The notes: generated from the sequence alone by a model not told the origin. 64,000 bases of DNA from Candidatus Liptonbacteria bacterium (GCA_023244895.1 JAHFLL010000001.1:83630-147629), one strand, 5' to 3'; positions 13,441 through 29,125 are shown, counted from the first letter of the stretch. Numbers and translations: made by a program.

Positions 13441-13527
13441 TTCAATAATCGGATTGACGGATAGTCTTTTTTATACTTTCATATAGCGAGCGCACAATCA
13501 TCGCCACCTCGCCTCAAGGAGGTCGGA

Positions 13528-24591: not shown

Positions 24592-26388
24592 ATGAGCCAA
24601 AACAATATTCGCAACTTTGTAATTATTGCCCACGTAGATCATGGGAAGTCTACGCTGGCGGACCGGATGCTGGAAATCACCGGCACGGTGGAGGCGCGCA
24701 AAATGCGACCCCAATATTTGGACCAGCTGGAACTGGAGCGAGAGCGCGGTATTACCATTAAAATGGCTCCGGTTCGCATGAAGCATATTCTAGATGGCGA
24801 ACCATACACCTTGAATCTGATTGATACTCCTGGACACTCCGATTTTCAATACGAAGTTTCCCGCGCGCTTGCGGCAGTGGAAGGCGCAGTTTTATTGGTG
24901 GACGTGACTAAGGGCATCCAGGCGCAGACTCTTTCTAATTTGCGCCAGGCCCGAAAAAATAATTTGAAGATTATCGGAGCGGTTAACAAGGTTGATTTAC
25001 AGCCGGAGCGCGCGCCAAGGGTCTGCGCGGAACTGGCGGAGCTTCTAGATATTCCCAAAGAGGAGATACATATGATTTCCGGCAAGACCGGGGTGGGCGT
25101 GGAAGGTCTTTTGCGGGACGTGGTGCTGAGGGTTCCCGCGCCTCAATCTCCGCAGCCGGGAACTCCTGGGCGTAGCTTAACCTTTGATTCCTTCTATGAC
25201 GACCACAAGGGAATCTTGGCTTATGTGCGTATTATGGACGGCGAGATTAGGGCTGGCACGGAAGTGGAACTTATGGCGGGTGAGGCAAGGTGCAAAATAA
25301 AAGAAGTGGGTTGCTTCGCGCCGGAACTCAAAACCGTGCCGTCTCTTAGAGCGGGGGAGATCGGTTATCTGGCAACCGGGCTTAAAGAGCCATCTCTGGT
25401 TAAAATCGGAGACACGATTCTGGCTGACCCCGCCAAGCTTTCCAATAAAGAGAGTTTGCGTCTGCCGGGTTATCGGGAAGCCTCGCCGGTGGTGTTTATT
25501 TCTTTCTACCCGGACGGCGCGACGGAATTTGATGATTTGAAGCGCGGATTTGAGCGCCTGCATTTAACCGATTCCGCCTTGAACTTTGAGCCGGATGCGA
25601 ACGAGGCTCTGGGCCGGGGGCTTAAAGCTGGTTTTTTGGGCCAGCTTCATTTTGAAATTACGGCCAGTCGTCTGGAACGGGAATTCGGGTTGAAGTTTCT
25701 AACCAGTTTCCCGTCTATCGCTTATCGTGTGAAAGAAAAAGGGGAGTGGCGGGTGGTAAAAGACGCGCACCAGTTTCCGGATAACCCCGAAGAAGTTATG
25801 CAGCCAATGATTAAGGTGGAGATCGTGTCTCCCGCCATATATCTAAACGTAGTGGTCAGTTTACAGCAGGCTTACCAATTGGAGGTCGCGGAGATACATA
25901 CCGTGGGAGAAAGCGTTTTAATACACGGGCGAATGCCGCTTGCGGAACTGATTCGTGATTTTGATGACAAATTAAAATCTGTTTCCGCTGGCTACGCCTC
26001 TTTCAGTTACGAATTGGATACGGATGAACGGGCGGATGTGGAAAAGTTGGAAATATTAATCGCGGGCGAAGTCGCTTCCGCTTTAACGCGGGTGGTTTTT
26101 CGCAAAGACCTGGAGCGAGAGGGTCGTGCCACGGTTGAAAAGCTAAAGGACCTTTTGCCCCGCCAGCAATTCTCCCAGCCATTGCAGGCCAGTTCCGGAG
26201 GCAGAATTATAGCGCGCGAGACAATCCCGGCATTAAAGAAAAAGCTGGGAGATTTTGGTAAAAATGGCGGGGACCGCACTCGCAAGATGAAGCTTTGGAA
26301 AAAGCAGGAACGGGGCAAGGAACGCCTGCAAGAATCCGCCCACGTGGAGCTTTCCGTGGAGGTGTTTAGGGAGATATTAAAAAAATAG
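24592..26388 (+). CDS. lepA: elongation factor 4 (LepA)
   Basis: IIAHVDHGKSTLADR G-domain and LepA C-terminal domain. Confidence 0.92.
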   Translation: MSQNNIRNFVIIAHVDHGKSTLADRMLEITGTVEARKMRPQYLDQLELERERGITIKMAPVRMKHILDGEPYTLNLIDTPGHSDFQYEVSRALAAVEGAVLLVDVTKGIQAQTLSNLRQARKNNLKIIGAVNKVDLQPERAPRVCAELAELLDIPKEEIHMISGKTGVGVEGLLRDVVLRVPAPQSPQPGTPGRSLTFDSFYDDHKGILAYVRIMDGEIRAGTEVELMAGEARCKIKEVGCFAPELKTVPSLRAGEIGYLATGLKEPSLVKIGDTILADPAKLSNKESLRLPGYREASPVVFISFYPDGATEFDDLKRGFERLHLTDSALNFEPDANEALGRGLKAGFLGQLHFEITASRLEREFGLKFLTSFPSIAYRVKEKGEWRVVKDAHQFPDNPEEVMQPMIKVEIVSPAIYLNVVVSLQQAYQLEVAEIHTVGESVLIHGRMPLAELIRDFDDKLKSVSAGYASFSYELDTDERADVEKLEILIAGEVASALTRVVFRKDLEREGRATVEKLKDLLPRQQFSQPLQASSGGRIIARETIPALKKKLGDFGKNGGDRTRKMKLWKKQERGKERLQESAHVELSVEVFREILKK

Positions 26389-26420
26389 TAAGTAGATGGT
26401 GGCGAGTAAGTGATAGGGGA
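26386..26420 (+). repeat. heptad-phased stop array (TAG TAA..TAG.......TAA....TAG) after lepA
   Basis: stops at 26386, 26393, 26407 and 26414 in 7-nt phase. Confidence 0.5.
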
Positions 26421-26549
26421 AGACAGAAAGGGGCTCTGTGCTAACCCTACTCTGGGCTTGTGTTTTCAATAATTCATTGTATTATTCGGCCAGACTAAAA
26501 GCCTCGCTAGGGGCTTATGGCGTGAGCCATTTCATTGGGGGAGGTCGCC

Positions 26550-26831
26550 GTGGACGCTTTGAGTTATGTCTTGGTCGTCGTACTCGCTGGAGTGGTCATC
26601 TGGCTTGCGAATCGTCTGAGGGTACTGAAGAAGGAAAACGCGCAACTGAGCGCGAGTCTCGCGACGGCGCAGGCTGCTCTGCCGCCCGAAGGAACGGAGC
26701 AGTCTCTGCAGGGCATCACGTTTGACCTGCTGTGGGTTTGCCGAACATGCGGCTGGTTCGGTAGAAACAACGTGCTTTACAAGCACGTTCGGCGCGCGCA
26801 CGGAGTAGCAGGTCCACCCGAAGCTGCGTGA
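26550..26831 (+). CDS. 93-aa high-GC protein: TM anchor, coiled coil, C2H2-like zinc-finger tail (CRTCGWFGRNNVLYKHVRRAH)
   Basis: GGGGGAGG SD 5 nt upstream of a GTG start; the track ORF begins at an upstream TTG. Confidence 0.4.
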   Translation: MDALSYVLVVVLAGVVIWLANRLRVLKKENAQLSASLATAQAALPPEGTEQSLQGITFDLLWVCRTCGWFGRNNVLYKHVRRAHGVAGPPEAA

Positions 26832-26839
26832 GTACAAGT

Positions 26840-26885
26840 AGGCCCCCATGGCGAATCGCCCATCGGGGGCCTTTCGCTTTATGTT
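26840..26885 (+). terminator. intrinsic terminator AGGCCCCC(17-nt loop)GGGGGCCT then TTCGCTTTATGTT
   Basis: perfect 8-bp GC stem followed by a T-rich tail. Confidence 0.55.
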
Positions 26886-26950
26886 CTATGTTGCGTATTC
26901 TATACTCCATGTTGCGTATTTCCTGTTCCATATTTCTATTGTATTATTAG

Positions 26951-27253
26951 GTGAATGCTATGCGTGTTTTTGTGATAATAATCCTCTCTCTTTTCTTGGT
27001 GTTTTTGGTCGGGCAGATATGGAATCACAACGCGCGCATAAAGTCTGTTCAAGCGGATTTAAACAAGCTAGAGAAAGATGTGTCGCAAGCCAAGAGCGAG
27101 TACAAAAAAATGGAAGATGACCTGGAGTATTACTCCGACCCGGTTAATTTAGAAAAAGAATTACGCGCGCGCTTCAACTATCGCGCCAAGGACGAGAAGA
27201 TGATAATCATAGTTCCAACTTCCAGCATAAAAATACAAAGCTCCACGCCTTAA
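26951..27253 (+). CDS. FtsB/DivIC-like septum formation initiator
   Basis: TM helix, coiled coil, then C-terminal LRARFNYRAKDEKMIIIV. Confidence 0.55.
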   Translation: MNAMRVFVIIILSLFLVFLVGQIWNHNARIKSVQADLNKLEKDVSQAKSEYKKMEDDLEYYSDPVNLEKELRARFNYRAKDEKMIIIVPTSSIKIQSSTP

Positions 27254-28028: not shown

Positions 28029-28670
28029 ATGCTGCTCCGACTGGGAAAATGCCCATATTTTTGGTACATTTTGAGCATGGAATTTCTACTGGGCAGGCAA
28101 CCGATAGAATTCAAGCCGGAGCATCTGCCGTTGCTCGTAAGCGGCCGAGATAAGTCTGGCGCATCATTCTTCTCGGTGAGTCTTGTCTCCACGCTGTTTC
28201 GGGCGGGGGAGAAGGCGCTTTTCTTCTCGCTCAAGCAGCCGGCCGTAGATGAGTTCCAAAAGCAATGCGCCGGGCCAGAGGAGCAGATATTCTGCGTTCA
28301 GGATATGGAAAAAATTTCTGAGCTATCGCAGTATCGGGCGGTTGTTGTAAAAAGCGGAGACAGCGAGATGTGCTCCGATTTGATTACAAGCTTGCCGGAC
28401 ATAAGCGAGCGGGTAATTTTTATAAAAAATTTCGAAGCAACCTTAAATCCGGTACTTTGGGATTTACTGGCAGATAATAACAAAGTGATTCTCTCCGGAG
28501 ACATAGACTTATCCCGATTAATGCCGGAGATTATCCGGAAAAAATACTCCACTAAAATATTGTTTTCCCAGCCGGATGCGGACTTGGGTATAAGTCTTCC
28601 AGAGCTGCCCAGATATAGTGGATACATGATCGGCAAGGCGGGGAAGGGAATTATTAGTATTGAGATGTAG
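28029..28670 (+). CDS. hypothetical protein (start probably MEFLLGRQ at 28077)
   Basis: backbone GC; no confident domain; degenerate P-loop-like SGRDKSGAS. Confidence 0.45.
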   Translation: MLLRLGKCPYFWYILSMEFLLGRQPIEFKPEHLPLLVSGRDKSGASFFSVSLVSTLFRAGEKALFFSLKQPAVDEFQKQCAGPEEQIFCVQDMEKISELSQYRAVVVKSGDSEMCSDLITSLPDISERVIFIKNFEATLNPVLWDLLADNNKVILSGDIDLSRLMPEIIRKKYSTKILFSQPDADLGISLPELPRYSGYMIGKAGKGIISIEM

Positions 28671-28780: not shown

Positions 28781-29125
28781 CTAGGACATGATGGCGTGAA
28801 GCAGGGCGAGGCAGGGCCCGCCCACGCTTCCGAGGAAGAAGCCGATCGCGATGACTATCGCGTAGACCTCCAGCGCGGAAGTGCGTGGCTTGCGCCGCTT
28901 GAGCTTCCCGGCCAGATTGGCGAGGAGGCAGAGCAATGGCATCACCAAGATCCAGGTCAATGCGCGCCCCGTGGCCTGGTCTTGCGGACTGGCGCTTGGC
29001 CAGCCTGAGGACATGAGCCACCAGCCGCCCCAGATCGCCGCCAGCAGGGCGAGGATCGTCGTGAGGACGACGGCCCACTCCCATTTGCCGCAATCGATTC
29101 CGTTCGCCGCCGTGACGCTTGTCAT
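28781..29125 (-). CDS. 114-aa high-GC membrane protein (Trp-rich, about 3 predicted TM segments)
   Basis: GGAGGAG SD 4 nt upstream of the ATG; upstream TTGCCA-16-TATTTT promoter. Confidence 0.5.
   Translation of the reverse strand: MTSVTAANGIDCGKWEWAVVLTTILALLAAIWGGWWLMSSGWPSASPQDQATGRALTWILVMPLLCLLANLAGKLKRRKPRTSALEVYAIVIAIGFFLGSVGGPCLALLHAIMS

Follow-up and report, generated by a model that had tools for sequence, protein, structure and literature searches.

Cys2-His2 zinc sites are known in bacteria from the Ros/MucR proteins, in which the CxxC motif lies on a hairpin and the histidines on a helix (PMC9779718). The Ros ligands follow the pattern C-x2-C-x3-F-x2-L-x2-H-x3-H-H with a 9-residue spacer, and the finger is embedded in a 58-residue βββαα globular domain of a soluble alpha-proteobacterial DNA-binding regulator (PMC9779718). 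In the literature we found no description of a membrane-anchored bacterial C2H2 family. Zinc modules at the membrane are represented by the ZAS anti-sigma factors. Their Zn domain (H-x3-C-x2-C) is N-terminal, the TM helix comes after it, and their genes adjoin a sigma-factor gene.

Here we describe gene X from the lepA-divIC junction of a Patescibacterium (Paceibacteria/Parcubacteria, near Candidatus Liptonbacteria); "the window" denotes the whole 64-kb stretch of DNA that was analysed. Like Ros/MucR, the X protein offers a bacterial Cys2-His2 site, but it differs in having an 11-residue spacer, an H-x4-H pair, no third His, a module of ~30 residues and a membrane anchor. Only ~38 residues extend from its linker to the C-terminus, and X has no match to Pfam ROS_MUCR. 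Reading the tail as a Ros/MucR finger was rejected, as it lacks the C-x2-C-x9-H-x3-H-H arrangement in a ~58-aa domain. With the ZAS factors X shares tethering to the membrane and the presentation of a small cytoplasmic Zn-binding regulatory module, which for X is a prediction. It differs from them in its reverse domain order, in its motif and in that no sigma gene is nearby, and Pfam zf-HC2 does not match it.

Three further systems resemble parts of X. Classical C2H2 fingers (PF00096 / PF13894), the best matches to X in the PDB and in profile searches of 1.84 billion proteins, share with it a pair of Cys and a pair of His, the hydrophobic pattern F-x5-L-x2-H and an aromatic residue at the second position ahead of the first Cys; genuine fingers, among them the repeats of P0005, can likewise have H-x4-H. 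Unlike them, X has an 11- instead of a 12-residue Cys-His spacer, is present as a single copy, stays below the Pfam thresholds, has a TM helix and a leucine zipper in the same chain, belongs to a bacterial (CPR) host and is not modelled as ββα by AF2. The sequence WVCRTCGW fits the rubredoxin-type knuckle WVCxxCG(Y), and the most distant orthologue (P0004) adds a true, zinc-ribbon-like C4 ribbon; in contrast to rubredoxins and zinc ribbons, the second ligand pair of X is H-x4-H on a predicted helix, and a second CxxC knuckle is missing. Finally, DivIC/FtsB proteins (PF04977) are bitopic proteins of ~95 aa in which an N-terminal TM helix runs straight into a coiled coil, an order also found in X. 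However, X lacks a Pfam match to this family, its CCHH-bearing C-terminal half is unrelated, its predicted orientation is opposite, and it is limited to one genus while DivIC is found throughout the class.

Gene X in the lepA-divIC junction

The gene order DUF4012-lepA-divIC-surA_N is widely kept across 80 species-level relatives, and in 75 of these 80 species lepA and divIC are close together and X-less, the gap usually measuring 10-100 nt. In the window, lepA is located at 24592-26388 (plus strand; GTP_EFTU, EFG_C and LepA_C are on record in Pfam for the identical lepA of L004), and 161 nt separate its end from the start of gene X. Downstream of divIC follow a SurA_N gene and then a tRNA-Gly. 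The features between lepA and divIC are:

26402..26468, plus strand: long imperfect hairpin with U-run, putative lepA terminator; -16 to -31 kcal/mol in four lineages
26476..26489, plus strand: left repeat copy ATTGTATTATTCGG, invariant in four lineages, containing TATTAT at 26480-26485
26499-26516 and 26517-26530, plus strand: two adjacent leader stem-loops predicted by RNAalifold from four sequences
26537-26544, plus strand: SD GGGGGAGG, with a 5-nt spacer to GTG 26550
26550..26831, plus strand: gene X, 93 aa, GTG 26550 to TGA 26829-26831 (stop included); constrained frame with in-frame indels
26840..26885, plus strand: intrinsic terminator of X, hairpin 26840-26872 plus U-rich tail UUUCGCUUUAUGUU; dG -23.4 kcal/mol
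26881..26931, plus strand: T/G/C-rich periodic spacer array, 21 nt x 2.4 in the window
26938..26951, plus strand: right repeat copy ATTGTATTATTAGG, directly 5' of the divIC SD and ATG (26960)
26951-27253, plus strand: ORF of divIC (DivIC/FtsB family), ATG 26960; PF04977 30 bits, cut-off 28.9

A preliminary description of this DNA had reported an ORF after lepA which starts with a GTG 5 nt past an SD and gives a 93-aa product, and our coordinates agree with it. X is a real gene, because it occupies the same slot with the same start in four lineages and is constrained in frame +0 only. These lineages are closely related groundwater CPR (Patescibacteria), in which X always lies between lepA and divIC; the orthologues are 83% (L001), 80% (L002/L003) and 55-57% (L086/L087, P0004) identical to X. 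The start codons (GTG/GTG/ATG/ATG) are at one shared position, the purine-rich SD core is kept (GAGGAG in L001 and L002, GGGGAGG in L086), and all indels within the ORF are multiples of three. A frame-by-frame test yielded pN/pS of 0.30-0.43 for the X frame (Fisher p 7e-7 to 8e-5). Purifying selection was detected in this one of the six frames, so that the doubt raised earlier, that another frame might be better conserved in relatives, does not apply. Two other ORFs were considered and rejected. A longer X starting at TTG 26535, or as a 117-aa form in relatives, is not maintained (the TTG is lost in relatives and there is a 2-nt upstream indel), and an antisense ORF of 105 aa (26532-26849, minus strand) shows pN/pS of 0.8-1.6 and is broken in L001 and L086.

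The view of the region as a discrete cassette with a genuine gene was also confirmed, as the slot is kept in the four lineages and X is encoded in none of the 80 other species-level Paceibacteria relatives. A k-mer homologue search, run twice, returned the four orthologue clusters and nothing further, and an HMM search run exhaustively over 1.84 billion representatives revealed no additional prokaryotic relatives beyond two orthologue clusters. X was absent from the JGI metagenomes when these were queried with the protein and with its 31-nt terminator sequence. For the full protein, no curated family was found at or near threshold in Pfam (E<=1), PHROGs, NCBIfam and PADLOC. Weak matches to Rz-spanin, GspM and PsbT were dismissed, since they are confined to the TM and coiled-coil parts. 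X is a genus-restricted orphan outside every described family.

X has changed at about 10 times the rate of the neighbouring genes. Its dN reaches 0.35, in contrast to 0.00-0.04 for lepA, divIC and surA_N in the same comparisons, and its omega is 0.2-0.43 compared with 0.00-0.05. In addition, the pattern of divergence of X conflicts with that of the flanks. With four known X lineages, the covariation and conservation statistics given here are thin.

The insert and its regulatory elements

The X cassette is an insertion. The lineage-specific insert of ~460 nt is bracketed by the 14-nt direct repeat ATTGTATTATTnGG. Its two copies, at 26476 and 26938, are separated by 462 nt, and neither differs among the four lineages that have X. 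The exact 11-mer ATTGTATTATT occurs at these two positions in the 64 kb, while 0.05 occurrences were expected. The nearest X-less relative, L006 (LepA 77%), has a lepA-divIC gap of 108 nt which ends in TTGTATTATTAGG, directly 5' of the divIC start, and harbours a single copy of the motif. Since the motif is present twice around X and once in L006, we suggest either an insertion with target duplication or the duplication of a segment starting with the divIC upstream motif. In this Paceibacteria (CPR) lineage, the inserted segment with X on it interrupts the otherwise conserved junction of lepA and divIC. The idea that TTGTATTAT is a general promoter word of this genome was discarded, as it is not enriched (14 matches, 12 expected).

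Direct repeats on both sides and an unoccupied site in a relative, as seen here with L006, are hallmarks of mobile-element insertion, and the possibility was considered that X is a moron-like passenger left behind by a virus or a mobile element. Such a passenger, perhaps a small protein of the toxin or membrane-exclusion kind, would have arrived with target-site duplication and would have no core host role. A lineage-restricted insert that lies between direct repeats and brings along a terminator and a probable promoter would suit this reading, and so would its fast evolution (dN about 10 times that of the neighbours) and the discordance with the divergence of the flanks. Moreover, unrelated genes occupy the lepA-divIC slot in other Paceibacteria, which makes this junction a recurrent variable site. 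On the other hand, the cassette had no match in IMG/VR, nor at the DNA or protein level among the INPHARED phages, the JGI metagenomes contain no homologue, and PHROG or PADLOC families do not match. No mobility gene is present; within the 64 kb, neither the cassette nor its leader or terminator is found a second time. Stable inheritance in one slot with purifying selection in four lineages also argues against a mere passenger, and duplication of a regulatory motif accounts for the repeat as well as a target-site duplication does, because L006, too, has the repeat as a conserved element ahead of divIC. All in all, we consider a passenger improbable.

The base composition bears on the same question. 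X has a GC content of 0.59 versus 0.49, with GC1 of 0.67 and GC2 of 0.47, and its GC3 is mildly raised (0.64-0.73 versus 0.56 +/- 0.05 in long ORFs), which would fit a passenger. However, the excess of GC is found mostly at codon positions 1 and 2 and is amino-acid driven, and thus a high-GC donor is not indicated. In line with this, the homologues in high-GC bacteria and phages that had been envisaged for X did not emerge: no such homologue could be linked to it, and there were no phage or viral matches. The earlier proposal that the upstream sequence TTTCAATAAT connects this locus to position 13446 was not upheld either. In the window the motif has 3 matches where 0.33 are expected, a number reached by 1 of 100 shuffles; the three related loci have not kept it, and we treat it as a chance occurrence.

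The sequences around the ORF appear to form its own transcription unit. The hairpin at 26402..26468, which is followed by a U-run in each of the four lineages, is probably the terminator of lepA. Over the 161 nt preceding X the lineages share 78-83% identity, although they differ at ~50% of the synonymous positions in the flanking genes; the regulatory parts of X are conserved above the neutral level. No complete sigma-70 site was detected in a scan with the promoter consensus, and we regard TATTAT in the left repeat copy as a candidate -10 element. The leader stem-loops (AAGCCUC-GCUA-GGGGCUU and AUGGC-GUGA-GCCAU) have stems which are invariant but for one compensatory change from C-G to U-A in L001. 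The fold of the leader as a whole is not exceptional (z-score -1.2), and Rfam detected two tRNAs in the window and no match in the X leader.

A GC-rich hairpin with a U-tract, the signature of a rho-independent terminator, is present 3' of X and is 88-92% identical across the lineages, with an invariant core GGCGAATCGCCCATCGGGGGCCTTTCGCTTT. A terminator had been described here before as an 8-bp GC-stem; the terminator exists, but its stem is larger, and the 8 bp are only the base. Between it and divIC lies a spacer of 75 nt. The periodic array in this region varies in length between lineages, amounting to 7 nt x 12.4 in L086. Taken in order, a lepA terminator-like hairpin, the -10-like TATTAT, a leader of ~58 nt with its two stem-loops, a strong SD, the ORF and a strong terminator would make up a self-contained unit.

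Anchor, zipper and Cys2-His2 tail

The protein can be divided into the following parts:

26559..26612, plus strand: signal-anchor TM helix LSYVLVVVLAGVVIWLAN, residues ~4-21, predicted from Kyte-Doolittle values and AF2
26613..26681, plus strand: three-heptad leucine zipper, residues 22-44, as read from the sequence
26682..26714, plus strand: linker PPEGTEQSLQG, residues 45-55, its SLQG end invariant in four lineages
26715..26804, plus strand: CCHH module, residues 56-85, a predicted metal site with invariant ligands
26739-26741 (C64), 26748-26750 (C67), 26784-26786 (H79) and 26799-26801 (H84), plus strand: ligand codons, taken from the sequence

The membrane anchor and the coiled-coil-like segment, both noticed in the preliminary description, were supported by our analysis. 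Residues 1-19 have a mean Kyte-Doolittle value of 2.29, which is TM-grade (2.52 over 19 residues in P0004), and AF2 places a helix over residues 1-20 with pLDDT 81-91. The charge is 0 or -1 before the TM helix and +3, or +4 in P0004, over the 15 residues after it. According to the positive-inside rule, a basic flank marks the cytoplasmic side. The uncharged or acidic N-flank and the basic flank past the helix therefore predict an N-out / C-in topology; the positive-inside rule is the single basis of this call, and the charge balance of the adjacent DivIC is ambiguous. The heptads have L23, N30, L37 and L44 at a positions and L26, L33 and A40 at d positions, and AF2 gives a continuous helix across residues 2-42. 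Asn at an a position of a coiled coil is the GCN4-type signature of parallel dimers, and on this account X is predicted to be a parallel homodimer. In the linker the AF2 pLDDT drops below 50.

The same two segments are the starting point of the main rival to our interpretation, which regards X as a tandem paralogue (FtsB/FtsL-like) that was copied from divIC together with the upstream motif and has diverged since. X would then have kept the N-in/C-out orientation which we assume for the neighbouring DivIC from its family, its extracytoplasmic head would have turned into a metal-binding knob, and it would pair with DivIC in the divisome. Indeed, X lies directly upstream of divIC and is of similar size (93 versus 97 aa), and the 14-nt motif preceding divIC, also in the X-less L006, is duplicated before X. 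Residues 7-42 of X align in register with DivIC positions 7-42 (hhalign 84%, E 7e-6, against a profile of 71 DivIC proteins of related loci; column shuffles stay below 5%), and tblastn weakly matches divIC of both L017 and L037 (E 0.6-2.6). However, TM and coiled-coil segments easily align spuriously. The Pfam model that detects the true neighbour with 30 bits does not match X, and the C-terminal half of X lacks the DivIC C-terminal region (..sDp.n.Ek..R..), scoring a probability of 0.2% against the DivIC profile. The composition is unlike too (GC 0.59 versus 0.42, GC2 0.47 versus 0.27), the charges around the helix argue for the opposite topology, and Cys-based Zn sites, like the C4 ribbon of P0004, are typical of the cytoplasm. 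Thus, we judge a paralogue of divIC to be unlikely.

The CCHH ligands are conserved. C64, C67, H79 and H84 are invariant in the four lineages at 55-83% overall identity, as two Cys and two His of a classical finger would be in its homologues, and so is the stretch SLQGIxFDLxWVCRxCGWFG, which runs from the end of the linker through the next 20 residues. The ligands have stayed unchanged while dN of the protein rises to 0.35, compared with 0.02-0.04 in the neighbours. X carries the tail CRTCGWFGRNNVLYKHVRRAH, for which the spacing C-x2-C-x12-H-x4-H had been claimed; the sequence gives C-x2-C-x11-H-x4-H, one residue short, so that X falls outside the classical range of C-x2-4-C-x12-H-x3-5-H, and every alignment of X to a finger needs a 1-residue gap after CG(W). 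In P0004, the tail is extended at its C-terminal end by a second module, a C4 ribbon (CNHC...CSKC).

Nevertheless, several comparisons point to C2H2 fingers. Past the orthologues, the HMM search of 1.84 billion representatives arrived at P0005-P0013, of which P0005-P0008 were inspected and are mostly poly-C2H2. P0005 (E 1e-20) has 11 repeats, and Pfam zf-C2H2 was confirmed for it and for P0006; P0008 is poly-C2H2 by sequence reading only, and P0007 is a CxxC repeat protein without a C2H2 family. A tail-only profile produced 36 sub-threshold matches among PDB sequences, 28 of them classical C2H2 fingers, with the consensus finger 1mey as the best (E 0.004); the other 8 were rubredoxins, in which only the WVCxxCG knuckle is matched. 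With hhalign, the tail reached 96.7% against fingers taken out of these matches, which is a circular test, and 76.5% (score 22.2) against 16 canonical fingers picked independently of the matched stretches. For 100 ligand-fixed shuffles compared to the same 16 fingers the mean score was 9.3 (sd 2.5, max 16.3), and thus the resemblance to C2H2 reaches beyond ligand spacing and includes the hydrophobic core. By contrast, none of the Pfam C2H2 models (PF00096 / PF13894) reaches the gathering threshold for X or the tails of its orthologues; the best score, 15 bits for zf-C2H2_4 with a cut-off of 27, was obtained with the P0003 tail only.

The preliminary description had proposed AlphaFold as a check of the ββα unit, and this check did not produce one: both AF2 runs gave helices, with pLDDT of 50-75. 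The full protein, modelled from 3 sequences, had a pLDDT of 60.7 (tail ~50), and the tail alone had 70; both models are helical without a hairpin. The helices comprise residues ~50-66, the CxxC region, and 75-84, and the models are metal-free and of low confidence. Foldseek found no matches to this low-confidence model of X. Accordingly, the tail could be read as a helical hairpin with a CxxC redox or other motif, or with a merely incidental CCHH pattern, and not as a zinc finger. Both AF2 models, the spacing that is off by one and the sub-threshold Pfam scores would be in line with such a tail. However, the invariance of the four ligands and the CxxCG knuckle despite 45% sequence divergence, the rubredoxin-like appearance of the knuckle, the similarity of the whole tail to C2H2 beyond the ligand pattern, and the quality of the models argue against it, and we think that a tail of this kind is rather improbable.

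We therefore return to a metal site. Judging from the conserved ligands, the tail probably binds metal, and the metal may well be zinc; for a true ββα fold the chances are even at best. The label of a C2H2-like finger from the preliminary description retains its profile, PDB and hhalign similarity and loses the classical spacing and family membership, as the spacer is x11 and Pfam scores are sub-threshold. To call X a putative membrane-tethered C2H2-like finger protein still seems reasonable.

Proposed role of X

Based on these observations, we propose with a probability of roughly one half that X is a cytoplasm-facing, membrane-tethered, dimeric Zn adaptor or regulator. In this model, X would be a single-pass protein with a very short uncharged or acidic N-terminus, a signal-anchor helix and a C-in tail. 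Paired by the zipper, it would show two Cys2-His2 modules of ~30 residues on the cytoplasmic face of the membrane. Each module would consist of a knuckle of the rubredoxin type (WVCxxCGW) and a helix bearing two His, and would be nearest in sequence to classical C2H2. Thus equipped, X may act as a Zn-dependent adaptor or regulator at the membrane.

As to its partner, the would-be C2H2 helix positions -1, +2, +3 and +6 were inspected. In the window they are R72, N74, V75 and K78; R72, N74 and K78 are common to three lineages, while position 75 is V, A or T. The corresponding residues of P0004 are E, D, F and D. Since the knuckle and the linker are invariant and not the helix face, and since one lineage is acidic at the DNA-contact positions, a protein partner seems somewhat more likely than sequence-specific DNA binding. 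Possibly this partner is tied to the adjacent divIC; because X adjoins this gene, the division/envelope machinery is the first candidate.

In a bolder version, X would be a true ββα finger of the C2H2 type, one residue short, which a CPR bacterium evolved or acquired and which, encoded next to divIC, as a membrane-bound, GCN4-like dimer faces the cytoplasm and binds nucleic acid or the divisome. We hold this version to be distinctly improbable. If it were true, X would be a bacterial membrane-anchored C2H2 regulator without a described counterpart, and its origin may exemplify gene birth out of a divIC duplication.

Returning to the Zn adaptor or regulator, a working Cys2-His2 tail would be important for several reasons. 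Such a C2H2-like module would be a rarity among bacteria beyond the Ros/MucR proteins, and the combination of one finger with a TM anchor and a dimerising zipper would be an unusual format. Further, the host has a reduced CPR genome, in which each retained gene is informative. X is a clean case of an orphan that is young and fast-evolving and has conserved regulatory RNA elements of its own, inserted beside a division gene in an otherwise rigid operon, and it could be useful for studies on gene birth and on accessory division/envelope factors in Patescibacteria. As an orphan of four lineages, its impact is modest.

Apart from this, the C4 ribbon added in P0004 is a module typical of the cytoplasm, and in our analysis it was counted for a cytoplasmic location of the metal site.

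Divergence of X and of its flanking genes

The 93-aa gene X, located between lepA and divIC, and the genes flanking it show conflicting patterns of divergence over the four X-bearing lineages compared (the window and the loci L001, L002 and L086). In the flanks the window represents the most distant lineage, with dS values of 0.72-1.03, while L086 is nearer to L001 and L002 (dS 0.58-0.73). For X itself, on the other hand, the dS between the window and L001 is only 0.44, and it is L086 which is distant from all others (dS 0.85-1.13, dN 0.35). This conflict suggests that alleles of X may have been exchanged between lineages or, alternatively, that its rate of evolution may have shifted in connection with the extra zinc ribbon in L086.

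The L086 locus also has peculiarities at lepA. A perfect 16-nt palindrome, TCCGCCAGCTGGCGGA, is inserted directly 3' of the lepA stop codon (L086 7820-7850), and the lepA gene (L086 5917-7819) encodes a LepA with an insertion of approximately 44 residues following ...APVRM. A scaffold gap (Ns) is present at this locus along with the palindrome and the LepA insertion.

The lepA-divIC junction and its non-coding DNA

The gap between lepA and divIC is a slot that varies recurrently: in other Paceibacteria (L013, L016, L018, L031, L053, L054, L058, L068 and L075) it harbours unrelated inserts, including an M50-like membrane protein, a P-loop protein encoded on the minus strand and small TM proteins.

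The non-coding region 5' of X (window 26389-26549) is 78-83% identical between lineages, as compared to a difference of about 50% at the synonymous sites of the neighbours of X. It contains two adjacent, conserved stem-loops (window 26499-26530) with one compensatory change, and has no match in Rfam. The spacer from the X terminator to divIC is a T/G/C-rich periodic array, the length of which differs from lineage to lineage:

window 26881-26931: periodic spacer array, 21 nt x 2.4
L086 8489-8577: periodic spacer array, 7-nt unit x 12.4

Genes downstream of divIC

An ORF of 197-213 aa (window 28029-28670, plus strand) is located 3' of tRNA-Gly. It is found in L004, the locus with a lepA identical to that of the window, and is missing from L001; none of the libraries searched assigned it to a family. 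Further downstream, a multi-TM ORF of 114 aa (window 28781-29125, minus strand) has a GC content of 0.65 and a GC3 of 0.86, the reference being 0.56 +/- 0.05 in the long ORFs of the genome. Its foreign-DNA signal is much stronger than that of X. This ORF matched no family in Pfam, NCBIfam, PHROG or PADLOC, and is missing from the L001 context.

X, the putative zinc protein, is followed at a distance of 3 kb by an ABC-3 permease and an ABC ATPase, encoded at 29677-~31150 of the window (minus strand). The permease belongs to Pfam PF00950, the Znu/Mnt-type metal importer family, and the nearness of the pair to X is probably a coincidence.
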